Positions 1 through 64,000 of a stretch of DNA of 64,000 nt are shown here, one piece after another. The notes under the pieces were generated by a model. That model searched no databases, was not told the DNA's origin, and worked only from the letters and a program-made list of their open reading frames with translations. The DNA is from Protoeuglena noctilucae (Eukaryota), in assembly GCA_958009085.1 (NCBI GenBank), contig OY253681.1, positions 806,001 through 870,000 of the forward strand, in the 5' to 3' direction. How positions within the stretch are numbered: the first letter of the stretch is position 1; the number at the start of each line of letters is the position of its first letter. Position numbers and translations under genes: made by a program.

Positions 1-6
1 GGCGGA

Positions 7-13635: not shown

Positions 13636-16345
13636 ATGGTGGGCCTTGCCACGCAAGGGAGCGCAGTGTCCGCGCGTCCCGCGCCCCCCGCGCCGCGCTG
13701 CGTGTGCAATGCAGCATTCGGTATCCCCGGCGCCAGTCACGCGCATCGGAGGCGGGCGCTGCGCTCCGCTCGGGACAAAGGTCCGCAGCAGTGGGCTTGG
13801 TCCCCCGCCGGGACCCCGGGCGGGGCATCCGGCGGCCATGCGCCCGTGAGAGACATGCGTTGCTATGCGATAAAGAGCAAGCAGCAGCCCAAGTACGCCT
13901 GCTCCAACTGTGGCCGGCGGTATTTCCAGGTGCGCGTTTGCCTTTGCAAAGCTCCCAGGCGACCCGATCCGCGCAGCCGCGGTCCAATTCCGCTTCTCCT
14001 CGATCCGCAGCATCAAGGTCAGTGCGACGAGTGCGAGCAGTGGGGAACTGTCGAGGAGGCGTTGCCGGAGGAGTCGGAAGGCCGCGGGGGCGGGGGAGCG
14101 GGCAATCGCGCTGCGATGCGCGTGCGGATGAGCACCGCGACCGCCGCGCTGTCTCTGGACGAAGATGAAGACGGCGCGAGCGCAGGCGCGGGCGGTCGGG
14201 CCGGCAACGGCCGCGCGTGGCTGCAGGGTACGGGGCGCGTGCTGAGCTTGAGTGCGGTGTCCGCCACGGCGCGCCCCGCCCGCCGCCTGTCGCTGCCGGG
14301 CGCGGTGGGCGCCGAGGTGGGCCGCGTGCTGGGCGGCGGCGTGGTCCCTGGGGCCTGCGTGTTGATCGGGGGCGACCCGGGAGTGGGCAAGTCGACGTTG
14401 TTGATGCAAGTGGCGGATTTGGTGGCGGGAGTGCCTGGCGATGAGGCCGCGGAGGTGCTGCGGTGCCGGCCCGACAGCCCCGTGTTGTACGTGGTGAGGG
14501 GCTTTTATGTCATGGTGGCATGAGTGGGTGAAGGAGGTGTCGGTGTGTGGCGCTGTGCGTAGTTGTCGCAATAGCGTCTAATGCTGTGCTGTCTTATCAG
14601 GTGCCTCAGCTATCACCCGCACCTTCCCCCTTCTCCTTTCCGTACTCAGAGCGGGGAGGAGAGCGCCGAGCAGATCACCGCCCGGGCCGAGCGCATGGGC
14701 GTGACGCGCGCCTCATCCATCGCCCTCCTCTGCGAGACGGACATGGATGTCGTCCTATCCGCCATGGCATCCCTGCGCCCCCGCTGCGTTATCGTCGACA
14801 GTATCCAGACCATGTATCTGGAGGAGGCGGGGGCGTTTGCGGGGTCCACCACGCAGATACGCGAGTGTGCCAGGGCAGCCAATCGAGTGGCCAAGGAGAC
14901 GGGGGCGCCGGTGTTTCTGGTCGGACACGTGACGAAGGCGAGTGGGGTGGGCGATGGGGTGGATGGGGAAGTGGGCATGGACATTAACCCTCACTGCCAC
15001 CCCTATCACCACCCCCAGTGCCACCCTCACTTCCACCCCCACTACCACCCTCACTGCCACCCTCACTGTCAACCCCACTACCACCCCCACTGCCACCCAG
15101 GCCGGTGAGATTGCGGGCCCTAAGGTCCTGGAACACATGGTGGATGCCGTGGTGTACGTGGAGGGAGAGCGCAACGGCCAGCACCGCGTGTTGCGCACCA
15201 TCAAAAACCGATTCGGTTCCACCGACGAAGTCGCACTATTCGACATGGCTCCCGAGGGACTGCGAGCCGTACCTAATCCCAGCGAGGCTCTGCTGCGCAA
15301 CCGCAAGGCGGGGCTGGCGGAGGGGAAGGGCATTGGGAGCGTGGTGGCGGTGGCGTGCGGGGGCCGGCCGATGTTGGTGGAGATACAGGCACTGGCCACG
15401 CCGGTGCTGGACGCGGGGCAGCCCAGCCACACCTATGTGACGGGTGAGAGGGGGGGGGGGGGGGGGGGGGGGTGAGGGGGTGAAGCAGTGGTGTGGTGGG
15501 GTGTTGGTGATCAGAAGGGAGGGTGTGAGGGTGTGTGCCTGCCTGTTCCCGTCCCTCACCCCATCGCTCACTCCACCCATTCCCCTCATTCCACCCCCAC
15601 CCACCCATCTCCATCCCCTCTCCTTTCCACCCCCAGGCCTGGACGCCCGCCGCCTGTACCTCACACCATCCCCCATTCCACCCCATCCATCTCCCACCCA
15701 CCCCCCTCATCCCACCCCCAGGCCTGGACGCCCGCCGCCTGTACCTCATCCTGCAAGTCCTGCAGAAGCACGCGAGGGTCAAGGCGTTCGGCAGAGACGT
15801 GACGGTCAACGTCGTCGGTGGTTACGACTTCCGTGGCGATCCCTCGTCTGATCTGCCATTGGCGGTCGCGGTGACTTCGTCATTGTATGACAGACCCGTG
15901 GGGCACGAGGTGGCGTGCGTGGGGGGGGTGGGGCTCGCGGGGGAGATACGGGCCGTGCCGGCACTCGCCAGGCGCATCGGTGAGTGGGATGGGGGTGGAG
16001 GTGTGGGTGCGGGTGTGTGGGTGGGTGGGTGTGATGTCATTGTTGTGGGCTTGCAATTGTTCGGTTGTGTTACTACAGGATAGATCGAGTACCCAACACT
16101 CTATCATTGTATTATTGTATTGCCGTAGAATCACTCACTCAATCTTTCATTCTCCCCCCATCGCAGCGGAGGCGGATCGCATGGGCCTTCGTCGCATCAT
16201 CGTCCCCAAGGCGGGTTTCTCTGAGGAAGCGGCGAGGGGTGTGAGGGGGCAGGTGATCCCGGTCAGCAACATACGGCAGGCACTGCAAGCGGCGCTGGGG
16301 GGTGGGGAGGGGGGGGGGGGGTGGAGGGGGAGTGAGGGGGGATAG
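13636..16345 (+). CDS. radA: DNA repair protein RadA/Sms, probably organelle-targeted, multi-exon; start approximate
   Basis: Zn finger YACSNCG...GQCDEC.QWGT; Walker [52 protein letters not shown]; Lon-like C-terminus. Confidence 0.93.
14994..15098 (+). repeat. Degenerate 12-bp tandem repeat (cactgccacccc-like) in the C-rich 3' half of a RadA intron
   Basis: Reads as HCHP-HYHP-QCHP... in the shadow frame; lies in intron 14938-15100. Confidence 0.8.
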
Positions 16346-18656: not shown

Positions 18657-21600
18657 ATGGTCAAATCCGCCGTCAGGGTCGTGCTGCGCACCAGGCCCAC
18701 CGCACACTTCAATGCGGACGCCATCAAGGTGACCTGCGCTGCACACAGCGTCGTCGTTCGTTTCCTCGCGCCGAGAAGGACCCCGGCCGCTTGGTGTGTT
18801 TCGCACGTCATGGTTGGAGGGAGAGTAGCTCACATGCGCGACCTGGTTGGCAAAGGAGCGGCGGGCGCTGCGCGCGGGGCTCGCGTCGCCCGCATCGATG
18901 CATGTTGGTCCCCCCAACGTGCCCTGTGGCCCCGCAGATCAGCCCGGGCGGCGACGAAGTGGAGCTGAAGATCAGTAGATCTCACGTAAACACGAGCGCC
19001 GGTGAGCGGCCCTCTGTCGCGCTTGCTCGGCGCTGCCCGACGCTGTTGTGCATCCTCCCGCGCGATTTCGCGCCCTCCCCGCCCGCTTGTCCAGATACCG
19101 CGGAGCGCTATCGCTTCCGCTTCGACGGCGTGCTGCACGAGGCGACCCAGGAGGATGTCTTCTCGGTGTGCGCGGAGGACACGATTGACGCCTTCATGCA
19201 GGGCTTCAACGCCACCGTCCTGTGCTACGGGTGCGCGTTGGGGATGCCAATAGCTACATTGAGAGTGTCTTTATCTGCACATGTGGCTGTACCTGTCGTT
19301 GTGTCCAGGACAGGCACACAAAATCGCATTCACAGTATCCAATTCGCATTCCGCGCGCAGGCAGACGGGCGCCGGCAAGACGTACACGATGCTCGGTGGC
19401 CGCGACAGCTACAAATCCCGCGGCCTCGTCCCGCGCTGCATCTCCCGCGTTTTCGAGGAGATACGCCGCTCCCCCGACCTCACGCGCACCGTCCGGATGT
19501 CTTACGTCGAGATTTACAACGAGCACATCTACGATTTACTGAACCCTGCGCAGGTGAGGTTGCTGGGGCTCTGCGGTGGAAGATCTTGCGAGCAGCACGT
19601 GCGCACGTCACGTTTCGCAACAAGCCGCGCCATGGAAGGGCCAGGGTTTCTTATAGTTCGCATAATCGAACTCACTCGAGCGTTTATCGTACATCCCGCA
19701 GGACCCCGGTGCGATTCAGATCGCGGACGGCCCCCGGGGCTCGGTGCTGGTGCGGGGGGTGTCGTGCCCCGTGGTGATGACGGAGCAGGACGCCCTGCAG
19801 CTCATGTTCGAGGCAAGTCGGTGGTTAGTGATGTGGAAAATAACTGTGCAATATCATTCTTGCAGGATGCTCGCGCTGTGCAGCTCGTGTGTTGCCGGGT
19901 GTCGTGACACGCGCATCCCCCAGCCCCCCTCCCCAATCGCTATATCGTGCTGTCTCGATCGTGCCACAGGGAGAGGAGAACCGCGCGATCGCCGAGCACC
20001 AGCTGAACACGATGTCGTCCCGCTCCCACGCCGTGGTGACGCTCTACCTGGAGACCAGGCGATCGCCCGTCGACCCCCAGAGCATCACCTCCAAGATGCA
20101 TTTAATTGACTTGGCGGGATCCGAGGTAAGAGATGGCATCTCACTGATACTGTCACTGATTCATGGCAGTGATGGGAGAGATGCACCTGATCGACCTCGC
20201 GGGGTCCGAGGTGAGACGTGGCATGTACATGGCATGTCACTAACAGTGATATTGAACCATCACCGACGGTGCTTATTGCCGGTACGATTACAGCCAGCCT
20301 GACAGTGTTAACAAACACCACCCCTGTCCCCCCTTTACCCCCCGCAGCGTCTTCGCAAGACCAAGTCGAGCGGCACGGTGGCCAAGGAGGCGACGTTCAT
20401 CAACAAGTCGCTGTCCTTCTTGGAGCAGGTGGTGGTGGCGCTGGGGGATCGAACCCGCGACCACGTGCCGTACCGGTCCTCCAAGCTCACCCACATGCTC
20501 AAAGACTCCCTGGGGGGGAACTCCAAGACGCTGGTAAGTGAGAGGGAGAGATGGTTGGTGTGACGGTGCTTGGGTGTGACCACCTTTTCCATGCTGTGAC
20601 GTTTCACATCCTCTCACTCTCACTCTCAATCCCACTCTCACCCTCTCACTGTCACTGTCACTCTCTCTTTCACTCACTCTCGTCTCTCATCTTTCATCTC
20701 CCCTCCCCAGATGGTGGCCAACGTGTGGGGCGACCCCGACCACCTGGACGAGACATTGAGCACCTGTCGGTTCGCCCAGCGGATGATGCGAGTGTCGTGT
20801 GACGTGGTGCAGAACGTGGCGGAGGACACGACCGCGCTGGCCAGGGCACTGCAGGCGCAAGTGGCGCAGGTGAGAGGGATGAGGGGTAGTGATAAGTGTA
20901 ACCAGTGATGGGCACTAGCGAGGGCACTGCAGGCGCAAGTGGCGCAGGTGAGGGGGGTTGGGAGTGTACCATTAATTGTTATCATATATCCATTTATTAA
21001 CAACATGTCCTGTGACTCGCAGCTCAAAGAGGAGCTGGCCATGTACGACGCCATGAGCAACCGTGCAGGCGTCACCTACGACCCCTACACCGCCGATCAG
21101 AAGCAGCAGCTCAAAGCGCAGGTGCTGGAGTTCTTTACCAACACCAATGCAGACGTATCTATGGGGTCCATCGAGCCACTTCAGTTCCTGTCCGTGCGTC
21201 ACATGACGGAGACGCTGCTGGTGTGCCGGGAGCTGTACCAGGAAGCGAGGGGGGGAAGGGGAGAGGTGAAGGGGGTGGGTTGAGAGGGGCACTGATGATG
21301 GCAGAGATCGCAGGGCGCATCAAGCCTTTCATTACAACGTGTTACATCACGCTTTCATGCCATTGCAGGGACCTGTGGGGGTGGGTGCAGCGACAGTGGG
21401 GAGCTCAGACAGAGCCCCAGCATCAAACAGTCCATTAAGAAACAACCAGGACGGCGATGGGGGTGATGAGGGCGATGGGGATGGCGACAGGGCAGAGGGG
21501 GCGACGTTGGAGAGGAGCGGGGGTGGGGAGGGAGAGGGTGTGGATGCGAGGGGTGGCGGAGAGGGGGAGGAGAGTGGGGAGGGGTCCGTGGATGGGCGCA

Positions 21601-26880: not shown

Positions 26881-27355
26881 TTCCCCCGGGACCTGACATG
26901 TGAACCTGGCACAGAGTTTTTCCCGACTTTGCTGGGCGCATCCCGGCTATCCTTGCTATGTTATGCGCTAGTTGCACGGCCTCGTGCCGACGTAGGATAA
27001 GTGGTTTACTTCAACGACTTGGGGTCCCCTCAGGTTCTGTTAACGGCTTAGACAGATTCGTCAGTGCAATCACGGCTTCAAGCAACAACATCTCTCGGAC
27101 AAGTTTATCGTTTTAGATCTGTCAAGGTGGGTTGCGTTCAGCACTCCTAGAAAAGGGGGGAGTCGGTCGGAAGGCCTCACATGCACGTGCATGTGGGGCC
27201 TTTGGGAGACATACCGGCGCGTGGCGGTTGCTGCTATGTGCAAAATCTAAGTACTTTCTGTTGTTTCTAACGCAGGAGGAAGCGAGAATCGGCAGATGCC
27301 TCTCCAGCGCCTCCCTGCACAGCATTAGAGTTGGGGAACTACACAGCAACAGAAG

Positions 27356-36443: not shown

Positions 36444-38588
36444 ATGGAGGACACAGATGCTTCGGCTTTGCAGGTGCATACCTGCTGCCCGCGTTCCACG
36501 CCCCGCGTTGCTGCAAAAACCGTTGCAAGTACCATTGACATTGCCAAGCACCACACGCGATTGCTTGGCTCGCAGTCGCTGCTGGACCTCCCAGATGACG
36601 CTCTGCTACGAATACTCGCGCTGACGGACTCGGCGCGGGCCGTGGGGGCCGCTGCGTGCACTTGCCGGGCGCTGCGCGAACTGCTGCTGACGCGGCCGAT
36701 CGGGCTGGTACGGGCGTCGTTCCGAGATGAAAACCTGGTGAACGCGGTAGATGACGCGTTTGTCGCGAGGATGTGCGGCCCGGGGACGGAGATCGCGGAC
36801 CTGTCCGGGTGCTGGCGCGTGACGGACGCGAGCCTCGCGCATTTGGGCCGTTCAGGGACGATTCGCGAGCTCGATCTGTCCGGCTGCAAGAACTTGACGG
36901 ACGCGGGACTCGACCACGTCGAATTCATGGGCCGCGTGGAGCGGGTGGGCCTGGCGGGGACGCTCGTGACGGATGCGGGAGTGCGCAAGGTGGCAGCACT
37001 CGGCTGGGTGCGGTCGATCGACACCTGGGGCTGCCCGCGCGTCGGCGACGCGGCGATCGGGGAGCTGGCGGGCGCGGGCGTGGCGGCGGTGCGGCTGGGG
37101 AAGGGGCTCGCGACCCCGCAGGGGCTGGCGCAGCTGGCGAGGGCGCGTGGATTGCGAAGCCTGGACCTCCAGAGCTTCACGGGTCTCTGCGCCGACGACG
37201 TGGTGGCGCTGGCGGGGCTGAGGGAGCTGGAGAGCCTTTCTTTGGGCCCCCTGGGTGTGTCATATGCCGAGGGTCTGGACTTGGTGGCAGTGGAGGCGTT
37301 GGCGTCGATGCCGGCGCTGCGGGACCTGACCCTGGACGGCGTCTCGCTGCTACAAGCGGGGCCGCTGGCGGCGCTCACGAGCCTGCGCGAGCTCGGGGTA
37401 TCGTTTCGCACCACCGCGCCCGTCGGGCTGGCCGCGTTGGCGAGCCTGCCCCGGCTCACCGCCCTCACGCTCGAGTGCGACTGGGCCGACAACGATCTGG
37501 CAGATCTGTCGGGTCTGCTGGAGCGGCTGGAGTACTTGTCGCTGAAAGTCGCGCCGCCGGACCCAGCCCTGGCGTCTCTGGCTCACGCCACGGCCCTCAC
37601 CTGGCTCGCCCTGGACTGCACACCGGTGTCCAGGGACTTCCTGGAGACGCTGCCACCCCTGCCGGCGCTGCGTGCGGTGGAGCTGAGCCGGGCGTGGGTG
37701 ACGCTGAGGGACCTCGGCCCTTTGGCGCGGTTCCCTGCGTTGCGCGAGGTTCACGTGTGCGACTCGCTGTGGGGCATCGATGGGGGTAATGAGGTGGAAA
37801 GGCTGCCAGCTGGGACTGAGGATGGGTTAGAGAGTGGGGTGGAGGGGCTGCCAGTGGCCCTCGAGGCCTTTTCCTTCGACAAGTACCTGGGGCTTTCGTT
37901 AGCGCCTCTGTCGCATTACACGGGCCTGACGAGGGTCGATGTCACTGCGGTTGGAGAAGCGTGCGACGTGGCGCCCCTCGCATCGCTCACAGCCCTGCGG
38001 ATGCTGTCACTGACGCGCCAGGGCTCCCCAATGTGCACGGGGATGTCGCATCTGTCGGCGCTCACCGCCCTCACCAGCCTGTCGCTGCGCCGCGTAACCG
38101 ACGAGGATATGTGCGATTTCGGGGCTGTTCTCTCTCGCTTGTCTCGCTTAGACCATTTGGCCTTGCACGACTGCAAGCTACGCATCGACCCCACCGCCCT
38201 CGCGTCCCTCACCTCCCTGTGCTCCCTGGCAGTGACCCAATTCGCGCCCGACCTCTCTATCGGCGCTTGCACGGACCAGCACCTGCGCAGCCTGAGCCGC
38301 TTGCCCCGCCTGGAGGAGCTGAGCATATACGGTCTCGATGCGCACCGCGTGTCGAGCGCAGGCATGGCGGCCCTCGCCGAGGTGGTGTCCCTAGAGAAGC
38401 TCGTGCTGTGGTATGCCGAGGGACTGGGCCCCGAGTGTTTTGAGCGATATAGGCATGGTTTGACGAGGCTGACGCACCTGCATGCCGTGGTGCACGGTCC
38501 CAATGCACCCGCCATGCACCAAGCCATGCGGGGGTTTCAGGCAGACAGGGCACGCGACGGCTGGCACTTTGAGTTGCGGGTGCAGTGA
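36444..38588 (+). CDS. F-box/leucine-rich repeat protein, intronless, 714 aa
   Basis: F-box-like LLDLPDDALLRILA followed by LRRs (DLSGCWRVTDASL, LDLSGCKNLTDAGL, LTALTSLSL...). Confidence 0.85.
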   Translation: MEDTDASALQVHTCCPRSTPRVAAKTVASTIDIAKHHTRLLGSQSLLDLPDDALLRILALTDSARAVGAAACTCRALRELLLTRPIGLVRASFRDENLVNAVDDAFVARMCGPGTEIADLSGCWRVTDASLAHLGRSGTIRELDLSGCKNLTDAGLDHVEFMGRVERVGLAGTLVTDAGVRKVAALGWVRSIDTWGCPRVGDAAIGELAGAGVAAVRLGKGLATPQGLAQLARARGLRSLDLQSFTGLCADDVVALAGLRELESLSLGPLGVSYAEGLDLVAVEALASMPALRDLTLDGVSLLQAGPLAALTSLRELGVSFRTTAPVGLAALASLPRLTALTLECDWADNDLADLSGLLERLEYLSLKVAPPDPALASLAHATALTWLALDCTPVSRDFLETLPPLPALRAVELSRAWVTLRDLGPLARFPALREVHVCDSLWGIDGGNEVERLPAGTEDGLESGVEGLPVALEAFSFDKYLGLSLAPLSHYTGLTRVDVTAVGEACDVAPLASLTALRMLSLTRQGSPMCTGMSHLSALTALTSLSLRRVTDEDMCDFGAVLSRLSRLDHLALHDCKLRIDPTALASLTSLCSLAVTQFAPDLSIGACTDQHLRSLSRLPRLEELSIYGLDAHRVSSAGMAALAEVVSLEKLVLWYAEGLGPECFERYRHGLTRLTHLHAVVHGPNAPAMHQAMRGFQADRARDGWHFELRVQ

Positions 38589-38762
38589 GGTGCAGCGGGA
38601 GGGTGGGGGGATGGGGCCACAGTGGCTCTTAGAGTTGCGGGTGCAGTGAGATGGGGCGGCGGTGGCGCTGTGACTGGTTGGTAACTGTTTGGTTCAGCGA
38701 GTTACAATTTGAATCCCCGTCTATAAGGTCTAAAAAGTAGTACTACTATGCAGCGAGTCACA

Positions 38763-49575: not shown

Positions 49576-52505
49576 ATGGCCCGCCACGTCGATCCCGGAG
49601 AGCTGGACGCGCTCTTCGGGGCGCTGAGCACGATCTTCGTGCTGTCCCCCAGCGCCATGGCACTGTCCCTCGACAGCATGCTCCGGGACCAGCTGGTGGA
49701 CGTCAACTCGCTCCCCACCGGGCCGATCGTCGAGCTTTACCTCGGGACCATCGACCGGTGCGCTCTGGACCTTTCGCAGGGCAGGATACCTGGCGACGAC
49801 TTCCGAAGCCAGGCAAGCGCTGCGTTTTTGTCCGGCCTCGGCCCGCGGTCGCGCCCCGCCGGCCCCGCACCCGCTGCATCCCTGCTGGGCCGCAACACGC
49901 CGACGCCCGCACCCACAGGCACACGTCATGCAAATTATGAGAGAGTCTCTCGAGAGCACCCTGTCGGCTGTGTCAAACGTCCCCCGCACGCGCGAGATGA
50001 GCTACCTCCTCGATGCGGTGGCGATGCCGCTCGTCCCCTTGCTCCAGGTGCCGGCGGCCTCGCGATTCACCCGCCCGCGCTGCGTTATGATGTGCGTAAT
50101 TGACTTGGAGGCGCGGGAGTATACGTTGAGCCTCGTTTGCGAGTTTATTCCAGCCTTCCCTCCTCAGGCTCCGCTGGTGAACGCCGTGGCCGTCGCCGAG
50201 GTCGTCTGCCAGGCGCAGGCGGATGTCCAAGATGCTCTGAGGCGCCTGGATGAGTGGTTCAGACCCGGACTGGAGCTCCCCGACCGGATCAGGTGGGTGA
50301 TGGGTCGCAGCCCTAGCTGGCCCTTGTAATCATCGCGCGCGCTCCTCGGCGTCTCTCCTGGTCGCATTCCGCGTGAAACACACATATCATGTACATGCGA
50401 GGTCGAGCGCGCCCGCCCGCGCACGCCTGCGCCGGCAATTTCGAGTTGTGATGGCCTGGGCGTTGCAGCACAGAACTGTGCGCTGTTCCTCACCCGCCCG
50501 CAGCTCCCACGTCCAGCAGCTGCGGCAGAGCCTCGTGGAAGGCACGGGTGTCTCGCCTTCCATGGTCTCCCTCTACAGCGCCGTTGCGCTCGCCAGAGAG
50601 GTGCGGACGACGGTTGCCGGCTTTGTCAACACGCCACTGCAAGCGACACGTGGGGTGCCCAGTTGTTTAACAAACGACTCCATTTGATTCGATCTTGCAT
50701 CGTCGCGTGCAGGCGTCCGATTACGTAGACCGCGCCCGCCGCGCCATCAAGGCAGCGACGTGGCCGTCGCATGCCCAGCCAGGGACTGCCTCTGGTGCCC
50801 CCCCATTGGCCCTCCCCGCCCCCGCACCGCACCCATTCGCAGCTCCCTTCCCGGCGAATCCCATGGCGGCTGCCGTCTCTGCCCCCGCGCCCCACTTCAA
50901 TGGCACACCCTCGCGGCTCGCCCCCGCATCGGCGTCGCATGCCGGGTGCGTGGGGGGCCCATGCCGATTGCCATCCATCCCAGGTGCACAGATGTTGTCG
51001 CCCACCATGGGCGCCTGGTCAGCTGCTTCAAATCTCTTTTGCCCGATGACCCACCTTTTGCTCTTTCATCGCCCTCAGGGTTGCGGCGGCACCGGCGGGG
51101 CTCGAGATGCGCCCCGCTGGTCACGCGGATGCGGCGCCGTGGTTACATATTGTGTGGAACAAGCCGGGGCAGGACAGGGTGGCAGCGGAGGTGAGGGGGG
51201 GGTGCGGTGGGGGCGATAGAGGTGGTAATACTATGCCGCAGGTGCAAGGGTGAAGAGGATCAAGCAGGGTCAAGCAGGGTAAGGAGCCATCATTCACAGC
51301 TGTTCAATGCAATGTATTTCTCCTCATCAACCCCACACAGGGCACCACTCCCGGCACGTCGCGGGCAGTCAAGCGCAGGCGCATCGATGCGGGGGTGGCG
51401 GGGCATGGGGAGGAGGATCCGATCGAGGATGCCGGTAAGCTGCGGGCTTTTTTTAGTAACAGTAATGATATGTGTCGATGCTGTCTGTGTGGGCATATGG
51501 GTAACCCTTCCACGTGGTGTTGGTGAGCCTCACTTCGAAACACGCAGCTGCTTGACACACAACAGACGCCGCCCACCCTTCGCAACCCCCCGCAGGGCCC
51601 TCCCAGGTGCCCGCGGATGTGCGGGAGTTGCGGGAGATGAGCCGCGCTTTGGCGCAGGGCGTCCCGGGGGCGGGGGAGGGCCGGGTGGCGGCAGGGCAGC
51701 GTGTGGCAGAGACGTGGGGCAATGAAATGGGGGAGGTGGGGGGTGACAGGGAGGGTGGGAGGGGCGGGGGGGATGAGGCGAATGGTGGGGTTGGTCAAGA
51801 TGGTCAGGGTGGTCACATGGAGCTGCCTCACCACCGCAAGCAGAGAATCGCGCCTCTGAGGGACGGCGGGCAGCCTGGTCGGGACATCCCCCCTCGCGAG
51901 CCGGTCACTCCCGATGACGAGCCGCTGATGCTCGCGGCGGAGGCGAGGGCCAGAGCGAGGGCAGGGATGGGTGCTGGGGCGGGTGCAGGTGCGGGTGCGG
52001 GTGCGGGTGCGGGTGCGGGTGGGAGCATGCAAGGGGGGTCGTCGGTGCAGCGGCGGGAGCAGGGGCAGGAACTGGCAGGGTCAGGCCGAGCCTCGCCGGC
52101 CCCGCACCAAGCTGCCCCCGCGCCTGCCTCCCCCGCGGCGGGGTATGGTGGGTCGGGGCCGCGCAAGCCCCGCGTGATGTGGACCCAAACGGAGACCGAC
52201 CTGCTCGTCTCTCTGCACAACCAGTACGGCAACCAGGTGGGTGGGTGGTGCGGGATCACTCGCATGGTGGGTGGCTCATTTAGGTACAAGGTCACACCAC
52301 GTAGGTCATTAGGATGACAGCGGTTCCCATGGCTGGTGCGTGTGTTCTGTGCCCTTTCCTGGCGCAGTTGACCACGCGGCGTCGTTTCCGGTGCCCGCAG
52401 TGGGCGCAAATCCTGGAGAAGGGCGCGGATGGCTTCCAGAAGTGCCGGACTTCGATCGATCTGAAGGACAAGTGGCGCAACCTGCTCAAGGCCGGGCGCG
52501 TCTGA
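49576..52505 (+). CDS. Protein with a C-terminal telobox-type Myb domain (TRF-like), multi-exon
   Basis: RKPRVMWTQTETDLLVSLHNQYGNQ|WAQIL...RTSIDLKDKWRNL. The N-terminal helical region is linked by splice sites, including a GC donor at 49813. Confidence 0.75.
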
Positions 52506-52769
52506 ACGAGTGTGGATCATTCACGACTCAGCGCTTGAAATGCATCGCCTGTTTTGAATTCGGTCACGAACGCACAAGTCGCCGCGCCTGTGAGCCGGGA
52601 TGGATTCGCGCCGCGCGGCGCATCCGCGGTGTCGGTGACACGCCGTTGCCCTGGCACGGCCGACCGACGAAAGGATCACTCTTGTACGCGGAGGGGACTG
52701 AATTCGCGTCATCTATCAACATCCGGCATTCATCGTTGCACCATCCAGGATCCAGGGAGCCCTTGCGTG

Positions 52770-54274
52770 ATGCTCGGGGCCCGTCTGTCGCTGCTGCCGC
52801 AGAAGATCGGTGTCCGTGAGTCGGGGGCGTCTCGATGCGTCGCTGCGATTTCTCCCTTCGCGGTCGCGTATCGCGATTCGTCCGGCGCGCGGTGCCTACG
52901 AGCTTACATCGTCCCCGCGCCCTAGGCCACTTCCTTCCCTCCCGCGCAGGCGTCCCCGCGCGTCCATCCAGCCGCGTCGTCAGGATGGCGTCGCTCCCTG
53001 AACTCACGATCTGGGTGAAAGGCAATCCGAGCAAGGGCGAGCGCGGAGACTGCCCCTTCAGCCACAAGGCGCTGCTGTCGCTCGCGAACAAGGGCGTGCA
53101 GTATCGCGAGGTCTATCTCGATCTGAACGCGAAGCCCGAGGTGCGTGATGCGAATATCAAGCCATCGGCTCTCCCCCGGGCCCGCTCTAGCCCATCTCGT
53201 CGCGCCTCACCTCACCTCGCTGCGCTCATCACCTCATCGCCCGTGAGTCTGAGGCTGTGTGCGAGAGAATGAGAATGACAGTAAAGATAAGAGTGTAAGT
53301 GCCCCGCAGTGGTACGCCGCGACGATCAACGCCAAGGGCTCCGTGCCTACGCTCATCGTGGGCGGACCCGTGGACGCCGAGGGTCGCCCCGCGGACGGCT
53401 TCTCCGGCGAGCTGATCGGCGACTCGGGTCTGGTGGTGGAGTGGGCGGAGCGGGAGGTGCCCGTGCCACCGCTGCAGCCGCGGAGCGATGAAGAGGCGAA
53501 GCTGGGGGAGGGGTTTATGGGGGCTTTCAGGGACTTCCTGCTGTGCAAGGACGGGGAGGTGGAGGAGAAGGCGAGGGGGAGGCGATGGGGGGGAGTGTGG
53601 GGTGGTTGTTTTAATTTGTCGTTGGATCGGCGCACCGGCCCTCGTTCGCATCACGCGCCCATCTCACCCAACTCATCTTACCCTAGCTCACCACGCCATC
53701 GCCCACCCCACCCACATACCCACCCACACACCCACTCAACCCATCTCCCCTTTGCCCCAGAAATCCGCATTCATCAGTCAGCTCCAGTCCCTGGAGTCCT
53801 TCCTCTCCACCCACGACGGCCCCTTCTTGGGCGGCGACATGATGCGGCAGACAGACTGCCGCCTCGCGCCCCAGCTCTACCACTCCATCGTGGCACTGAA
53901 AGAGTTCCGGGGATTCGATGTGCTGTCTCAATTCCCTCTGCTGACCGAGTACTTCCAGGCGGTGAGGGGCTGGGGGGAGATGTATGGGGTGACGCATGGG
54001 GTGATGTGGGGAATGGGGTGACATGAGCTGTGCACCTACCGCACCTGCTACCGCCGCTCCCATCGCCATGCTACCACTCCCTGCACCCACTGCACCCGCT
54101 ACCGCTCACCTCCCTTGCCACTGCCCCTCTCACTTCTCTCCGTATGTCATCTCTTATTCGTCGTCTTGGTCATCGCAGGTGCAAGGCACGGATGCCTGGC
54201 ACAAGACGCACTACACGCCGGAGGTGATGGTGGCGGGGTGGAGGCCCAAGGTGGAGGCGGCGAGGAAGGCGTGA
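52770..54274 (+). CDS. DHAR: Dehydroascorbate reductase, with a short N-terminal extension, 5 exons
   Basis: IWVKG...GDCPFSHKALLSL..K; KPE|W; GSVP; IGDS; GPFLGG; DCRLAPQLYH; VMVAGWRPKV. Confidence 0.92.
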
Positions 54275-54890
54275 GGGGGGTGGGAGAGGGTGGGGGTTGA
54301 GGGAGATGGGGGTGGTTGGGAGGCAGCCAGGAAGGCCTGAGGGGGGATGGTATGGGAGGGCTGGGTGTGGGCGAGGGTGGCGTGGGAGGGGAATGGCGAG
54401 GGTGGCAGGGAGGATGTGGCTTTGTGGTGGAGGCGGTCAGGAGGGCGTGAGGGGGATGGTATGGGAGGGGGGGTGGATGAGAGATGGGTGAGGGTGGGGG
54501 TGGCTGGGAGATGAGCGAGGGTGGCATGTGAGGGTGGTAAAAGGTGTTGCTGTCGGTGGCAGGGGTGGGGAAGTTAAGATGCAATAGCAGCACTGGCGAT
54601 GGGCACTCCAGAGCGCTGGGTATGGCTGCCAGGGTCACATCATAGCATTTGCACATAGCACACGAGCAACATTGAACCGGCCCTCTTTCAGCTCAGCATC
54701 TTGCTTACAACCATTGACGACTCGCCATTCACCCATCCAATTATCGAGCCTCAGCAAGCCCCGAGCTGTCATGCAATGCCGCAACTGCACAACACCGCAA
54801 CCACCACGCAAGCCGCCACCGCCATGCACAGCACCGCCCTCATACGCGCACGTGTGTTTGAAACTCCGCATGCGTTTTTCAAACTTCCCC

Positions 54891-57800
54891 TCACACGTTC
54901 TCCCGTATGAGCAGCGGCGCCCCCTCGCATCCCCGGCTGTTGTCCACGAAGGACAGCTCCCACATCTCGATGCCCGCCGGCCGCAGGGCCGCCTCAATGC
55001 GACGCAGCGCCTGGGGGGGGGTGAGGGTGTGGTAGAGAGAGTGTGTGGTAGAGATGAGATTGAGAGTGGCAGAGGGGGAGAGAGTGTGGCATAGATGAGG
55101 GTGGAAGAGGGGAGAGTGGCAGAGGGGAGGGAGTGGCAGTGGTGAGAGTGGCAGAGTGGGAGAGGGGAGAGTGAGAGTGGCTGAGAGGGGAATGTGTAAG
55201 AGGGGAGAGTGGCAGTGGCGAGAGTGGCAGAGAAACGGGAGATGGCGAGGGGCACAGACTCCCTCGTCACCACCAATCCCCCTCCCTCGTTACCACCAAT
55301 CTCCCTCCCCCCCTTTCCTCACAACCCACTACACCCTCACCTCCCCTCACCACCCCACCCCCCCCCGCCCCCACCCCTCCTGCTCACCTCCTCATCTTCC
55401 GGCCACTCCCCCGTCCTCGTCCCAATCACCGCCCCGCTGTAGCTGAGCCCAGCCGCGGGTGCCACTCCCTGGTAGTAGAAGACACCGAATGACAGGTCGT
55501 CGGCAGCGTCCAATATGCGCCAGTGCTCCGTGGACGTCACGCCGTTGTCTAACACGCTGCGGGGATGGGGGAGTGGGAGGGGGGTTGGTTATAGGGATGG
55601 AATGGTGATGGTGGTGTTAAAAGCACTGCAGTTGAGAAGCCCCTTGCCACCCCACACTCCACCCCCATCACCTTCACCACCACCCCCTCACCTGAACCAG
55701 AACGCCCCCGGCTCCTCCCCCCTGCGCACCCGGTAGTGCCTCCGACACCACACCTCGCGCCCATCCAACGTCTTCACCCGAAACACGGGGTCATACCACA
55801 GGGTCTTGCCCCCCCTCCCCCGATACCACAGCTGGTACTGGCATGGGAATTGATCGTATGCCGCGTTCTGCCCCGCGGCCACCCGCCAGCTCCAATCGAG
55901 GTCGCCGTTCGAATCCCGCAGATGTCCCAAAAAGATCGCCTCGGCGCTTTCGTGCGTGAGGGGCTGCCCCCGCCAATGGGAGAAAGGGCGCACGGCCGGC
56001 AGCGTGGGTATCGATGCCGATTGGTCCATGCAGTTGTGCTTTTGGAGCACACAGAGGGAGAAGTCGCGGAATTGGGGGGACTCGAAAGACACGATGGCGC
56101 TGGGGGGGGATGGGTGGGAGGGGGGGGGGGATGAGGGTGTGGGGTGGTGTGGGGGGTGAGGAGAGGGGTGGGTGAGTGAGGGGTGAGTTGCTGGGAGTGT
56201 GGGTGGAGAGAATGGGTGATATTATCCTCACTCTCTTATCTCGTCCCCTCCCTCCATCCCCCCTCACCGGTACGCCCCACTGTCTCTCCCATCTCACCTT
56301 TTCTCTCTGATCTCACTTCCAATCCCCTAATTACCATCCCCCCTCACCGGTACGCCCCCACTTGGTCGTTCAGCCCCACGCGCTGCAGCTCATCCAATGC
56401 CTGCCGGCACGAGGGGTTGGCGAAACACGCTGCCACTTCTCTCGTGCAGTAGCGGAGCATGCGGAGGGTGCCTGAGGGAGACATGCCCTGCTTGGGAAGA
56501 AGGGGGACCTGAGAAGGGGGGGGTGAAGTTGGGTGAGTAGGGGTGAGAGGGGGTGAGTGGTGGGGGGGTGGTATGAGGTGGGGGACATGCCCTGCTTGGG
56601 GAGGAGGGGGACCTGGGGGTGGGGGGGGGGGGTTTAGTGGGTGAGAGGGGTGGTGAGAGGTGGGGGACATGCCCTGCTTGGGGAGCAGGGGGACCTGGGA
56701 GGGGGGGGATGGAAGGGGGACGGGTGAGTGAGAGGGTGATGGGTGGGTGGCGAAGGGGGTGGTGGTAAGGCGAGTGGTGGGCGTGGTGGTGCTTGCAAAC
56801 ACGTCGCCTCTGCCACCCCTCTCAGCCTTGCACGCACGCACGTTTCACACGCACCCCCCTCCCCCCCCCCACCACCCCCTTCACTCGCCCGCGTGACGTA
56901 TGCGTCCACCAGCACCAGCGTCAGAAACAGCCAGTCGTCAGAAGTGTCTCTCGCAGCCAGCTCCCGGCACACGTCCCTCGTCTCCCTGCCGGCCGCGCTT
57001 GCCCAGAACACGGGTCCGATCAGGGGCGTGCGGGAGAGGGCGCTCTCCCATCCGGCGACGGTGCGGTCGTCGCTGCCGCGGAAAGCGCCCAGTTGGTCAA
57101 GGGAGGAGGACTGCGGGTGGTGGGGTGTGGGGTGTGGGGTGTGGGGTGTGGGGTGTCGGGTGTGGGGTGTGGACTGCGGGGGTGGGGTGTGGGAGAGGGA
57201 GAGGGAGAGGGAGAGGTGTGAGAGTGAGAGTGGGACAGACAGTGACAGACAGTGAGAGATGGACATCGTCACTAAATGCACACTGCAGCCTCACCAGTGC
57301 GGGGCTGCATCTCAGGCACAGGCGCGTGGGGATGCGGCGGAGGGCATCCGCACGGGCACTGGCAGCGCGGCCGGCGAGTGCCTGAAACGCCGGGGAGGGG
57401 CCCTCGATGCCGACGCACAGGAGCACGTGGGCCGTCTGCGCCGCCTCCGCCAGCGCTGCGCCCTGGGGATGGCATGAAAGGTGGCGGGGCGTCCACAAGC
57501 GACAAATTAATTGCACCGCGTTCGCATCCCGATTGCGCGGTTGACTGCACCTTAATGTCGTGAAATACAAGTATCAATCACCTTCGCGTCGCCGGCTGTG
57601 AGGGAATCGTCCGCAAAGACGTCCACGGCGATGCGCGGGTCCGCCCACTGGATGCGCTTGGCCACGTGGCGCAGGACGCTCTCCCAGGGCGGGCCGAGGG
57701 GACTTGGGCCTTTCGACGCAGTGGGCGTGAGAATGAGCACCCTGCGCGGCGCACCGAATGCCGGATCGAACGAATGGCGGAGACCGGTAGTTGCAGCAGA

Positions 57801-58019
57801 GCAGCGGCCCCGCGCTCGCCTCGCTGACACTTGATCCGGGCGCGATCCTTCCGTTGTCGTCTCGACGACGCTCTCCGGCGCCCTGGTCGCGGATGGCGCG
57901 GCGACGCGCGCGCCGGGGCCGTGCCTCATGTTGCAATTGCAGGGCCGCAGCGCCCGCGATTCGAAGCCTCGACGCGGCGCCGCCAATCCCGCAAGCGCAC
58001 AAGACAGACCAGCTGCCAT
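54891..58019 (-). CDS. VDR: Violaxanthin de-epoxidase-related protein (VDR), multi-exon, transit peptide-like N-terminus
   Basis: CTREVAACFANPSCRQALD; NDQVGAYR|AIVSFES; FSLCVLQKHNC; WRVAAGQNAAYDQFPCQYQLWY; WYDPVFRVKTLDG; SVLDNGVTS.E.WRILD; WELSFVDN. Confidence 0.85.
55079..55232. repeat. Imperfect gagagtggcag tandem repeat in the last VDR intron
   Basis: Repeated gagagtg(t)ggcag/gagtggcagtgg units, pyrimidine-rich on the transcribed (-) strand. Confidence 0.7.
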
Positions 58020-58537
58020 CGCGCCCCCTATGTCCGTCTTATAGCGCGCACTCGCGCGGCTAGACTCTGCGGTAAGCCAGGGGCAGCAACGCGGGACGTA
58101 CTCGATAGAATAGACGATGCGAGGAGCTTGGTCTCAACCATTAGATGCACAGCAGCGATGCTCACTGTGCAATTGTCGTCGAGCTTATGTTCTAGGCCAA
58201 TTCTGGGACCGTTCCGACGCGCGCAAGAATGGGTGGCCTCTGACGGCAGCACTTCGCCCCGCGTCGACCTGAGAGCTTCTACATGTTTGCGATGCCGATT
58301 TTGTTGCGACGCAGCAGTCGTTCGCACTTCAAGGCAAGCCCATCGCAACCACACGCGAACAGCAGGGTCGCACACCCGCCCGAGCAGCCGGGCGGGCACA
58401 TCAGTTCGACCTTCGCAGTCACGACGTGCACTCCTAGTCGCTAGCTTACCGCGTGCCCTGTTCAATCGCCCTATTCTGAGCGCGAGCTCCGAGCGTGCCG
58501 CGCACCACTCCCTCCCCGCCTCGCCGAGCGTCCTGTT

Positions 58538-61500
58538 ATGGTCAAGGTCTGGGGCCCCGAGAGGTACGTGCCGCATGAGTGTGCTCGGTCGTCCCAACGC
58601 GGGACCCTCTGCGTCGTCTCGACTTCGGCTCGTGGTGGCAGGGACGCAGCGGCAGCGTTGCAGGTCCTCAGAGGTCCGAGAAGGCCGAAAGAGCGCTGCT
58701 TCCTATTCCTCGCAGTGACGATGACTCGGTCTCGTCGGGGTCGATCGTCGCGCAGGGCTATGGGGGCGCGGGAGGGCGAGCCGCGGGTCCAGCGGAGCTG
58801 GCGGGCCTGGACTTGGAGGTCCGGGACGCCGCGGAGGTGGAGCGACGAGTGATTGCGGAGCAGGAGGTGTTGCAGCTCGAGGCGGGCGTCGCGGCGGCGC
58901 CCAGGGAGGGTGCAGCTGCCCAAGGGGGGCCAGGATCGGACGACGCGGCCGCTGCGGGCGGGGACGCGGCCGCGAACGCTGCGCGACTGGCGGCGATCCA
59001 AGAGGAGATTGCCGCGCTGGAGGCGCTGAACGCGGACGGCGCCCCGGGCGTTTCCAAGGGCCGGCCGCATGGCAAGCGTGCGCGCCCTGCGGCCCCCGCG
59101 CCGGCCGGCCCCGTCTACACGGCGTCGCCGGGTCCGGACCCTTCTGCAGATGACCTGCAGCGGCGCCTTCGGGAGCAGCGCCTGGCGGATTTGCGCCAGG
59201 AGGCGGAGAAGTTACGCCACGCTGCGCTCGGGGGCCCTGGGCTATCGGCGGCCGATGCCTCGGGTTTAGCTGTATCGACGGAGGCGAACACGACGCGCCG
59301 GCGGGCGACGGGCAGCAGCTGGGGCGCGGTGGCGGGGGCATCGGCCGCAGCCCCCCGTCGCCAGAAACGCAAGAAGCACGTGGTGGTGGAGGACGCCGGG
59401 AGCTCCGAGGACGAGGGCGGGGCCGCTGCTTTGGCCGGCAGGCGAGGGGGAAAGAAGGGGGGGCTTTAGCAGGGCGATTGCCTTGACGCTCACCATCACT
59501 CGTCACTGGGTAGTGCTGTATAGGAAGGAGTCATTGCCACAATATAACACTCTTATGCTTTCATCCATCCCTTCTTCCTCGCCCGCTTGCTTCTCAGATC
59601 CGGCCCAGCCTTGGTGGAGACCACAAGGGACCGCCTGATCCGCACGGGCGTCATCACGCCTTTTGCGGGGGTGCAGGGATTTGAACACGGGGAGAGGGCG
59701 GGGGCCACCAATGGAACGCAGGAGACGGCGGGGGTGGCGGGGGCGGCGGGGGTGGCGGGGGTGGCTGGGGCGAGGGGTGCGGGGGCGGGGAGGGTGGCGG
59801 AGGGGCGGGGGCGGCGAGAGGTGCGTGGGTGGTGTTTGTGCTAACTTTGCTGGTGGCGATGCAAGTGGTATCGTCATTGTCACTTGATTGGGATATGCAT
59901 GACGTCTGCTAGCATGTCCAATCGCACCGCTGACTGTCGGCAAGCACTGCAACCCTTCCCTTGCCCATATCGCTCACAATACCCTGCACTGTCAATCAAT
60001 TCATGAAACTTTGATAACAACCGCAGACGCTCCACGACCGCCTCCGCCGCGCCGCCCGGGCCATCACGGCTGCGAGGGAGGCAGACGCGGATGCGAGGGC
60101 GGTGACGGGGACGTTTGACGATGCTGGGCCGACGGATGCGGATGGGTGGGGGGGTTATGATCACGGGCCGATACCCAGGGGGACGCCCAGCGTTCGATTC
60201 CACGAGTGAGTAGTGAGTGGGGATGTTGGTTGGTTGTTCATTGTGATATGTAGGTGTGGGAATGGGTGTGGGTTGTAGGTAACAGGAAGCATCGGTTGCA
60301 CCATCATCCATGCAGGAAGGGCAAGCCCTTGCGCCCGGTGTTAACCAGGGAGATGCGTACGATGCGCGTGGAGGTGACTGCGGGGAGGGGCCAAGGCAAG
60401 CGGAGGCGGAAGCGCGAGGCTGCGACTGGCGGGGGCGGCAAGGGCGGTGATGGGGATAGCATAAGAGAGCGTGGGGGTGGGAGGGGGGGCAGGGGGGGCG
60501 GGGGCGGTGGGGGCAGGGAGGGGAGTTCGAGTGATGTGGAGGTGGTGGGGGTGCGGGTGGGGGGTGGGGGTGAGGGAGGGGGTGGTGGTGCGGGTGGGGA
60601 GGGGTCAGTGGGAGTAGCTGGGGTGGGAGAGGGGAGAGCGGGGGGGAGTGGGAGGGTGGTGGAAGTGGGGACATCGGACAGTGATGGTGACGGGGGAGAG
60701 TCAAGTGAAGTGGGGTCGGAAGGGACGGGTGGGAGTGGAGGGGATATGGATGATGTGGGTGACGAGGATGGGGATGAGAGTGAAGACACGGAGAGCGATC
60801 CGGACGACCCATACGCGAGGTGTGTGATGGCTGGCTGGCTGATGTTGATTGGGATGGCTGCTAATATATGATGGCAATTGGGATGGTTGTTGCACTCATA
60901 CGCAAGTATCAAGCACCTGTGAGCACCTTTTGGACAATCCCAATCCATTGTTGCATGCGCGTACTCTCCCACTCACTCTCATGCGACTTCTCACTCTCAT
61001 GTGACTGTGCAGGGACGATGCGGTGGAGGCGGACTATGTGGCCAGGTGTCGGCGGGAGCTGAGGAGACAGGAAAGGGAAGAGGAAAGGAGGAGGCGGGAG
61101 AGGGAAGAGGGGAGGAGAAGGGGTGCGGGAAGGGGCAGTGGGGGTGGGGATGGTGGTAGGGATGGGGAGGATGGGGTGGGGGTGGGGGCGAGTGGAGCGA
61201 GTGGTGATGGTGCAGCGGGTGCGGGTGATGGTGGTGGTGGTGGAGAGGGCACGAGTGGGCGTGTAGATGGCAACAACAGTGCGGGTGTTGGCGATGGGTC
61301 CAACGGTGGCGTCGCCCCAGCTGATCCCGATCCCGACGTGACATTCGACGGTGGTCTCTGCGTTCCCCATAACATATGGTCCAGGATGTTTGATTATCAG
61401 CGCACGGGCCTGCAGTGGATGTGGGAGCTGCACACGCAGAGGGTGGGGGGCATCCTGGGGGACGAGATGGGGCTGGGGAAGGTGAGGGGGTGGGTGGGTC

Positions 61501-64000
61501 GGTGGATGGGTGGTGGTGGATGGGGTGGGGTAGCAACCATTCATTAACACCCCATCTTTCATCCCCATCTCTCATCGTCTCTACTCACCCATATGACAGC
61601 ATCTTCATTTTTCATTATCTCTCCTCCTTCACACCGCAGATGGTGCAATTGGTTGCTTCTCATCTCTAGCACTGCTCCCCCCCACCGCAGACGGTGCAGG
61701 TGGCCGCGTTCCTGGGCAGCCTCCACCACTCCGGCCTCTACCGCCCCAGCCTGGTGGTGGCCCCTGCCACCGTGCTGCGTCAGTGGATGAGAGAATTGCA
61801 TCGATGGTACCCGGTGTTCCGCGTCTACGTCATGCACGACTCGATGAGGACGACGGGGGAAGCGACCCGGTGAGTGATATTACTGATAGAGAGTGATGGT
61901 GACTGTCATGCACGACTCGATGAGAGCAAGCGGAGAAGCGAGCTGGTGAGGGATGGGAGATGAGGGAGATTGCGTGAGAGTGAGAGTGAGAGTGTGCGTG
62001 ATGCACGACTCGATGAGAGCGCAGCGCAGTTCATATCCGTTGGCCCCTCCCCTCTCCATCGCCACCCCACCCCACCCCACCCCATCCACCACCCAACCCC
62101 CCCATTCACAGCGAAGCCAAAGAGCGTCTGTTGAGAGACGTTCTGGCAGAGGATTCTGGCATAGTGATTACTACCTACGAGCACGTGAAGCTGTTCGCGG
62201 ACGTGCTGCTCCCCGTCAGCTGGGGCTACGTGGTGTTGGACGAGGGTCACAAGATTCGAAACCCCGACGCGGACGTCACCGTGGTGTGCAAGCAGATGCG
62301 CACGGTGCACAGGTGAGGGCGGAGATGAGAGGGGGCGACACCAGTCAAGTGCACACAGAGATGCTCTTTCACTCACCCTCAACCCCAACCACCCACCCTT
62401 CACCCCCAGGCTCCTCCTCTCCGGCTCCCCCATTCAAAATTCCCTGGTGGAGCTCTGGTCTCTGTTTGACTTCGTCTTCCCCGGCCGGCTGGGCACCCTA
62501 CCCGTGTTCACGCAGCAGTTCGTGGACGCCATACAGGCGAGGAGTGATTAGTTACTAAATAGTGACTATTATCGTTTATATTTACTACTGATTTGCGGGA
62601 TGAGATGGTAACGCTTGCACTCCTCACCACCTTAACCACCCCATCTCCCACCACCCCATCCCTCACCCCCCACCCCTACACACAGAGCGGCGGCTACGTC
62701 AATGCCTCCAAGCTGCAAGTGGCCACCGCCTATCGGTGCGCTGTGGTGCTGCGCGACCTCATCGCCCCCTACCTCTTACGGCGGCTCAAATCGGACGTGT
62801 CGCTGCAGCTGCCCGACAAGACGGAGCACGTGCTCTTCTGCCAGCTCACGCCGGAGCAGAGGGCGCAGTACCTGGGTGAGTTGGATAGCAGCGCTAGTAA
62901 TGGCGATGGCAGTGCTTGGGTGAGTTGAATAGCAGTGATGGCAATACATGGGTGAGACAGTAGCTACATCAACGGTGGCATTTACCACAGCCATCACCGT
63001 CACGCATGCATGTTCCATTATCTTCCCACCCCCCCCCCCCCCCCCCCCCCCAAGCGTACCTGGGCACCTCCGAGGTGGCCCGCATCGTGAGCGGGGAGCT
63101 GCACGCGCTGGCGGGCATCGGGGTGTTGCGCAAGATATGCAACCACCCCGACTTGCTGAGCCGGGTGTCGATGGCGGGGGAGGCTGCGTATGGGGACCCG
63201 GAGAGGTCGGGGAAGCTGAGGGTCACGGCGAGGGTGCTGCAGATGTGGGCGGAGCAGGGGCACAGGTGAGGGGTATGGGTGGGGGTTGGTGCGGTTGGGG
63301 TTGTGACATGAGGGGTGGGGGTGAGATGAGGGGTGTTGTAGATGTGAGCAGAACCTCAATGCATGCACTTACCAGGAAGTGCAAAATGCACAGACCCCAC
63401 CTCTCACTCCCCCTCTCCCCCCCCACCCACGCAGAGCTCTGGTCTTCACGCAGACGCAGCAGATGCTCGACATCTTGGAGAAGGCCACGCAGTCGCTGGG
63501 GCTGCGGTACATGCGCATGGACGGCAACACGGCGGTGCGCGTGCGGGCGAGGATGGTCGACGTGTTTAACAGCGATGAGAGCATGGCGGTGTTCCTGCTC
63601 ACCACGCGCGTGGGGGGGCTGGGGGTCAATCTCACAGGTGAGGGATGGAGAGATGCGGAGATTGTGTATGTATTACTATTGTTATGATTGATATGTTTGA
63701 TACTCGTTGCTGCGGATGGCATCAGATTGGCGGTACAGATTGACACAGCCGCACGAGTCAAGCGCACATTCGCTCTTTTTGCACATGGGACGACTCAAAT
63801 TCCACAACACCATTGTACTTTACGTGTCAGTACACTCTACATGATATGCTATTGTGATATCCCATATCTATCGCAGGTGCCGACCGTGTCCTGCTCTACG
63901 ACCCCGACTGGAACCCCATGACGGACGTGCAGGCGCGGGAGAGGGCGTGGCGCGTGGGGCAGAGGCGGCAGGTCACCATCTACCGACTCATCACGAGCGG
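58538..64000 (+). CDS. ERCC6: SNF2-family ATPase ERCC6/CSB/RAD26 (CHR8-like), multi-exon, runs off the 3' edge
   Basis: [131 protein letters not shown]. Confidence 0.94.

Follow-up and report, generated by a model that had tools for sequence, protein, structure and literature searches.

Echoes of a splice acceptor and exon start in a VDR-like gene of Protoeuglena noctilucae: probable products of tandem duplication across exon borders

Why should the acceptor of one exon, together with the first 33 nucleotides of that exon, stand three times in a row at a single intron-exon border? The question is raised by a 64,000-nucleotide stretch of the Protoeuglena noctilucae genome (contig OY253681.1, positions 806,001 to 870,000; hereafter the window, in whose own numbering coordinates are given), where intron 3 of a photoprotection-related, VDR-like (VDE-lipocalin) gene carries two near-copies, or echoes, of the acceptor and start of exon 4 upstream of the functional ones. 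Minisatellite-like tandem duplication across exon borders probably produced this arrangement and left intronized pseudo-splice sites behind. The feature is thus explained by a known kind of process, and its recurrence at exon borders within 64 kb is the more interesting point.

An earlier note on this DNA had described a triplicated acceptor plus exon start, with each echo having its own C-rich tract and CAG and then running into low-complexity sequence; the letters bear out this description. When the whole window was searched on both strands with up to three mismatches allowed, the 36-mer cag/GTCCCCCTNCTNCCCAAGCAGGGCATGTCNCCC (the slash marks the splice junction) gave three matches, all on the minus strand, and none in 100 dinucleotide-preserving shuffles of the window. 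The functional 36-mer reads cag/GTCCCCCTTCTTCCCAAGCAGGGCATGTCTCCC. The elements of the array are:

56476..56511, minus strand: functional copy (0 mismatches), made of cag and the 33 nt that open exon 4 (VPLLPKQGMSP), placed by the 36-mer search and by colinearity with the related protein P0002
56580..56615, minus strand: echo 2, the middle copy, with cag followed by 33 exon-type nt and differing from the functional copy at 3 positions
56662..56697, minus strand: echo 3, the distal copy, again cag followed by 33 exon-type nt and differing from the functional copy at 3 positions
56476..56765, minus strand: the whole array, three head-to-tail units of about 104, 82 and 104 nt

Each unit consists of a C-rich spacer with CTCAC motifs, the CAG, and the 33-nt exon start, the first exon-type bases of the three copies being 56694, 56612 and 56508. 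Past base 33, both upstream copies continue as C-rich low-complexity sequence. A repeat search (family D2) delimits 62-nt units at 56461-56522, 56565-56626 and 56647-56708, spaced by 104 and 82 nt, with 74% and 92% identity to the middle copy. In a head-to-tail alignment of the units (A1) the mean column identity is 78% and the core (CAG plus 33 nt) is almost invariant; ACC-CTCACC-CTCAC motifs are common to the spacers, which have indels between units. Echoes 2 and 3 differ from one another at 1 of 33 exon-type nt (5 of 62 over the longer unit) and from the functional copy at 3 of 33.

C-rich low-complexity sequence is hard for assemblers, which might have expanded one real copy to three. This is hardly credible here, because assembly stutter would give identical copies, whereas position 9 of the exon-type part holds three different bases and the spacers are unlike in length (82 and 104 nt) and in sequence. 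The same architecture is found at independent loci, as described below. Sequencing run X1 contains 1.00 of 320 31-mers sampled from a 3061-nt stretch, and runs X2-X4 contain 0.97-0.98, these being possibly the assembly's own source; two marine metagenome runs contain 0.80-0.84 of the 31-mers of the gene, shares that are not resolved to the repeat.

Which of the three copies is the functional one is decided by the protein that the gene encodes. The window has a G+C content of 60-72% and is eukaryotic, with short introns. The gene was modelled from tblastn of eight relatives against positions 52001-60000, combined with reading of the sequence:

54891..58019, minus strand: VDR-like (VDE-lipocalin) gene, seven exons, 561 aa
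58019-57582, 57462-57295, 57110-56889 and 56508-56348, minus strand: exons 1 to 4
56099-55692, 55556-55388 and 55010-54891, minus strand: exons 5 to 7
56509..56888, minus strand: intron 3, 380 nt, holding both echo units, with a GC donor (CGG/GCGAGT) and a CAG acceptor

The spliced coding sequence (CDS) of 1686 nt contains one stop, which is terminal. With E 5.6e-6 and 26.4 bits (cut-off 25.7), exon 5 alone matches the VDE lipocalin domain, PF07137, and exon 6 weakly matches the C-terminal part of the same domain (E 0.075). A protein search with exon 5 yields 449 relatives with E<=0.001 among 568 candidates, and those that are named are VDE, VDE-related or VDE-lipocalin proteins of green algae and land plants (53-64% identity). 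VDR is a clade distinct from true VDE. One homologue, P0014 from Trebouxia, goes by the source name "Vitamin D3 receptor", evidently a mis-expanded VDR.

The model is colinear with the named VDR/VDE-related proteins, including a Cys-containing segment ahead of the lipocalin domain. The best relative, P0002, is a JGI protein of 558 aa with 67% identity to the exon 5 query; its alignment to the model has 295 identical positions in 586 columns and is free of gaps over the last ~330 residues, a part that spans four intron positions, with 70% identity in exon 4. At the exon 3/4 junction, DAYVTR/VPLLPKQGMSPSG stands opposite DAFVAP/VPLLPKKGMGPGG in P0002, with no gap. Because colinearity is gap-free across the junction, the acceptor adjoining 56508 is the one that yields the conserved protein. 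Two further claims of the earlier note are thereby supported: that the host is a VDR gene, by the PF07137 match and the VDE-related relatives, and that the copy at 56511-56476 gives the conserved protein, by colinearity with P0002. This nearest relative (P0002, P0123, P0124; 67-70% identity) is recorded as a product of 558 aa without interruption, on contigs of 5.9-11.4 kb. If the gene caller allowed for no introns, the gene of the relative has none, against six here.

The GC donor and CAG acceptor are the only pair for intron 3 that keeps phase 0 and gap-free colinearity with P0002; reading of the sequence found no GT donor that fits both. The donor of this intron (56887-56888, minus strand) is therefore apparently GC, and GT stands at the remaining five (the six being GTGATT, GTGAGG, GCGAGT, GTGAGG, GTGAGG and GTGAGC). 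Intron 2 (57111-57294, minus strand) holds a (CACCCCA)n-type microsatellite (Tandem Repeats Finder, period 7, 11.3 copies, 57115-57193) and a second ccgcag/TCC 63 nt upstream of its real acceptor, in frame and without a stop. A search for transcript-derived protein fragments across the exon 3/4 junction gave only the window's own open reading frame (ORF) and P0002 at lengths of 96-2000 aa, and no match at 29-95 aa. Metagenome contigs contributed 34 loci with a best identity of 61%, none from the host species or from the organism of P0002. Matches in the ESM Atlas, sub-threshold bacterial PAS only, were disregarded.

Could the two upstream acceptors be used? All three look competent: each has CAG/G, a C+T content of 80-92% between -28 and -4, and a CTCAC with its A at -26 to -36. 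The pseudo-sites thus carry the splice consensus of the authentic site in all three units, in agreement with their earlier description as apparently good acceptors. Use of echo 2 adds 104 nt and shifts the frame, with a stop after 90 aa of a test construct. Use of echo 3 lengthens the transcript by 186 nt, which keep the frame, contain no stop and encode 62 residues, mostly Pro, His and Thr, and the ORF at 56344..56844 (minus strand) covers this extension.

These consequences invite the proposal that the echoes are working alternative 3' splice sites that tune the output of the VDR-like protein. Between its N-terminal region and its Cys-rich/lipocalin part, the echo 3 isoform would carry a 62-residue Pro-rich insert in which VPLLPKQGMSP is repeated, and the frameshifted echo 2 transcript would be removed by nonsense-mediated decay (NMD). 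The signals shared by the three sites and the reading frames of the two extensions agree with this proposal, as does the prediction, described below, that the tract of echo 3 is unpaired. We nevertheless think it unlikely. The C-rich stretch is open in all three frames, so that an open frame through echo 3 means little, and by our own count the spacer is almost without G-ending codons, against 41% in the CDS. Echo 2 is equally preserved though its frame does not agree with that of echo 3, P0002, as the nearest relative, lacks the insert, and the decoys at other loci in the window break the frame (+85, +78 with a stop, +80 and +76).

For the conserved protein to be made, the spliceosome would have to pass over both echoes, and this is plausible from the sequence. 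Since the spliceosome takes as its 3' splice site the first AG that follows the branch point in use, a branch point in the last unit would suffice to bypass them. There is no AG between echo 2 and the real CAG, which leaves an AG-free stretch of ~84 nt. Choice of the 3' splice site anchored by the branch point, with AG exclusion zones (PMC1431707, PMC11482624), and structure-assisted recognition of 3' sites in yeast (PMC3239191) have been described. The branch-point and AG-exclusion rules would let the upstream AGs be ignored, and the AG-free stretch fits them; they come from yeast and mammals, whereas the host here is an alga and its branch point is putative.

Is the echo a peculiarity of this gene? 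The window was scanned for others in three ways. Exact 16-mers gave 16 segments, 9 of them within coding repeats at 229-683. When the low-complexity filter was on, self-blastn gave 17 rows, 10 in the coding repeats at 1-880 and one a local palindrome. Unfiltered self-blastn limited to distances <=500 nt gave 22 rows, and the 15 beyond position 900 reduce to 10 loci of local direct repeats. Two of these loci are purely low-complexity intron arrays (14987-15098 and 55063-55232) and eight contain unique sequence; of the latter, five span exon-intron junctions with support from frame or homology, two lie at apparent CDS ends, and one (1582) is a tandem next to a SUMO-like exon. Besides the acceptor array of exon 4, the loci with unique sequence comprise:

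56334..56358, minus strand: end of exon 4 plus its functional donor (…GGGGCGTACCG/GTGAGGGGGGATGG), repeat family D5
56254..56278, minus strand: echo of the exon 4 end and donor, 80 nt into intron 4, 25/25 identical, repeat family D5
15627/15712 (15627-15748), plus strand: acceptor (ccacccccag) plus 27 nt of exon in a RadA/Sms-like gene, echoed 85 nt upstream in the intron, 37/37
20843/20921 (20843-20956), plus strand: 27 nt of exon end plus donor GTGAG in a kinesin-like gene, echoed 78 nt into the intron, 35/36
61829/~61905/~62001 (61829-62020), plus strand: 41 nt of exon end (…VMHDSMR…) plus donor in a SNF2-family gene, echoed twice at spacings of 76 and 93 nt
54250/54319/54429 (54250-54469), plus strand: apparent CDS end of a GST/DHAR-like gene, TGA inside a GTGAG-like motif, three copies at spacings of 69 and 110 nt, 88% identity (blastn)
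38562/38623 (38562-38650), plus strand: apparent CDS end of a gene without assigned family, TGA inside a GTGAG-like motif, two copies 61 nt apart, 26/28
1582/1631 (1582-1679): 49-nt tandem, 48/49 identical, just ahead of a SUMO-like exon (Rad60-SLD match, E 5.2e-6) when read along the minus strand

Exon 4 is thus echoed at both of its ends, a point that the earlier note does not mention. At its donor the last 11 nt of the exon (a 12th lies past a one-base gap in the G-run) and GTGAGGGGGGATGG are repeated, and use of the echo would add 80 nt with an immediate stop (aa 54 of 216 in the test construct). Elsewhere, the decoy acceptor at 15627 would add 85 nt, with a frameshift and a stop; its gene is assigned as RadA-like, with weak Pfam matches (ChlI, Lon_C) below cut-offs. 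Read-through to the decoy donor at 20921 adds 78 nt and hits a stop after 12 codons. The first echo in the SNF2-family gene adds 76 nt and an immediate stop, and the second has no donor. Such recurrence in other genes of the window indicates that the echo is not special to the VDR-like gene.

The echoes of CDS ends at 54250 and 38562 sit in G-rich 3' flanks, where the GTGAG motifs are candidate stop contexts or donors. In the 1582 tandem, the copy nearer to the exon has ATG where the other has CTG. The coding-type repeats at 1-880 (plus strand) number about seven, of 126 nt (42 codons) each, with 76-87% identity and a DRTVKLW-like motif; they look like WD40 repeats. The palindrome, a near-perfect 32-nt one (94%) at 27171-27202, is the only inverted self-match of the window.

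How may such an array arise? For intron 3, two rounds of short, minisatellite-type tandem duplication would give the triplication. The duplicated unit, of about 80-100 bp, would start in the C-rich 3' part of intron 3 and end 33 nt inside exon 4, so that each round would copy a branch-like motif, the pyrimidine tract, the CAG and the exon start. After the first duplication the echo unit itself would have been duplicated, an order suggested by the closer likeness of echoes 2 and 3 to each other than to the functional copy. Only the copy joined to exon 4 gives the conserved protein, and the two upstream copies would therefore have become intron, their acceptors now being pseudo-acceptors. Intron 3 would thereby have roughly doubled, from ~194 to 380 nt. 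Its length of ~194 nt without the two units would fall inside the 119-377 nt spanned by the other five introns of the gene. Duplications of this kind may arise genome-wide where unique coding sequence borders on low-complexity sequence rich in G or C, as at intron ends and 3' flanks; only arrangements that use the exon-attached site keep the mRNA intact, and these would therefore be the ones seen. With similar copies at several exon borders nearby, the array seems to be a product of common local duplication and not a device peculiar to this gene.

Base pairing within the intron suggests another reason for the presence of the echoes. The element concerned is:

56852..56879, minus strand: G-rich tract at the 5' end of intron 3, with predicted pairing to the C-tract and CAG of echo 2

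In both minimum free energy and partition-function folds this tract pairs with 56615-56658, and the echo 2 tract has a predicted pairing probability of 0.59, while the tracts of the other copies have 0.14 and 0.16. Such pairing could hide echo 2 and bring the donor close to the last unit; echo 3 would stay unmasked. The echoes might therefore be kept for the structure of the pre-mRNA, in which the G-rich 5' end pairs with the C-tract of echo 2, echo 3 is looped out, the donor is placed by the last unit, and splicing takes the outermost sites, which lie at the foot of an intron hairpin. All 100 shuffles of intron 3 fold less well than the intron itself (z -3.0), and long G/C hairpins are likewise predicted for introns 4 and 6 (z -2.05 and -2.96 against shuffles). 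We regard retention for structure as very unlikely all the same. The pairing is a thermodynamic prediction, and runs of G and C pair promiscuously. The echo-bearing intron of the RadA-like gene folds no better than its shuffles (z +0.99, with 173 of 200 at least as good), echo 3 is not masked, and among related sequences that could show covariation none is closer than 61%. The four folded introns (56509-56888, 56100-56347 and 55011-55387 on the minus strand, 15444-15721 on the plus strand) are all G-rich in their 5' half and C-rich in their 3' half, and each is predicted to form one long hairpin that brings donor to acceptor.

Local duplication across a splice border has precedents. Nearest to the present array is intron 7 of human F7 (IVS7), where a 37-bp variable number tandem repeat has its first unit spanning the exon 7-intron 7 border; the donor pseudo-sites are identical and yet silent, and the most upstream site is chosen (PMC1557585). 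As in F7, the units here are head-to-tail with the terminal one spanning the exon-intron border, the array starts in the exon, and pseudo-sites of the same sequence lie inside the intron. The outermost, exon-joined site makes the normal mRNA in F7, and the exon-joined copy gives the conserved protein here. The donor-side echoes at 56254, 20921 and 61905 are direct counterparts of the F7 array; the array of intron 3 is acceptor-side and hence its mirror image, with units of 82-104 nt and variable spacers rather than near-identical 37-bp units. The host is a GC-rich alga. Silence of the pseudo-sites and copy-number polymorphism were demonstrated in F7; here the silence is putative.

In Drosophila, introns have changed by tandem duplication of coding sequence that contains a proto-splice site (PMC2891723), and a segmental duplication is described as creating an intron (PMC3265369). 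Both processes resemble the present one in that splice signals are copied locally and a former exon copy becomes intron ("intronization"). They differ from it in that a new intron is born from two exonic AGGT copies, whereas here an existing intron was lengthened at no new position. Intron birth by AGGT duplication was rejected for intron 3, whose donor, CGG/GCGAGT at 56888, is unrelated to the echo; the 36-mer search of the window found no echo copy at the 5' end of the intron. Introners, transposon-derived introns known for example from Micromonas (PMC9860276, PMC3879977), likewise place repeats inside the introns of a marine GC-rich alga and are a candidate source of intron growth. They form dispersed, multi-copy families, whereas the repeats of the window are local: self-comparison of the 64 kb gave 17 self-matches, all <=684 nt apart, and no dispersed repeat family, and the introner reading was rejected. 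A recursive splice site was likewise rejected, as the CAG is followed by GTCCCC, unlike the six donors of the gene. No description of such echoes as a genome-wide habit of an alga was found in searches of open-access papers and bioRxiv.

Several observations weigh against tandem duplication without subsequent function. The first is the pattern of differences that the earlier note had emphasized. The 33-nt exon-type parts all translate as VPLLPKQGMSP, and the three variable sites (functional/middle/distal: position 9 T/C/G, position 12 T/C/C, position 30 T/C/C) are third-codon and synonymous. All four inferred substitutions are thus synonymous, with P ~0.02 under a neutral-decoy model with equal rates, in which the functional lineage is restricted to synonymous changes and the echo lineages are free at any site; the test is post hoc and concerns three variable sites. 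The three differences between the functional copy and the echoes give P ~0.07 alone, and 0.02 is reached when the difference between the echoes is added. The synonymous-only differences are real, but the meaning that had been read into them is statistically weak; the pattern, which would also favour alternative splice sites, is a weak hint and not evidence of function. The functional copy has T at all three sites, and T-ending codons make up 10% of the CDS; three such codons in 11 are not significant (P = 0.09, with 61 of 551 windows reaching 3). The older echo at 61905 has diverged freely by our reading of the letters: it matches at 38 of 47 bases, and its changes ACG to GCA, ACG to AGC and ACC to AGC would be non-synonymous, as expected of unconstrained intron DNA, which argues that echoes decay without coding constraint.

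The second point is that the proposed silence of both echoes is read from sequence. By simple intron definition the spliceosome might favour the nearest acceptor, that of echo 3, whose product is in frame. Third, several echoes are 100% identical in their exon-derived part, and the remainder of the unit aligns only with difficulty. This could mean very recent events combined with fast slippage of the spacers, or it could mean constraint or gene conversion. Lastly, two heuristics for counting the introns of the window proved noisy, one of them missing at least introns 4 and 6 of the VDR-like gene, and were dropped; the number of echoes per intron is therefore a rough impression.

A stronger proposal would extend tandem duplication in two directions: border-anchored duplication would be a systematic mode of intron growth in this alga, affecting perhaps one intron in ten and leaving there arrays of near-identical, fully competent splice sites, and the two extra VDR-like acceptors would have been kept functional, as the synonymous-only differences hint, as a splicing switch between a +62-residue linker isoform and an NMD isoform of the photoprotection-related protein. 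We consider this combination quite unlikely. For the VDR-like gene alone, the likely consequence of tandem duplication is just a longer intron. The wider interest is that nature seldom supplies near-identical splice sites in arrays, in which one can test how the spliceosome decides among equally good candidates. The classic case is donor-side and confined to one human gene; here a single exon bears three copies on its acceptor side and two on its donor side, with more echoes in the genes nearby. If the pattern holds genome-wide, the alga would offer many natural experiments in splice-site choice, and the lengthening of introns by the swallowing of exon-end copies would be directly visible.

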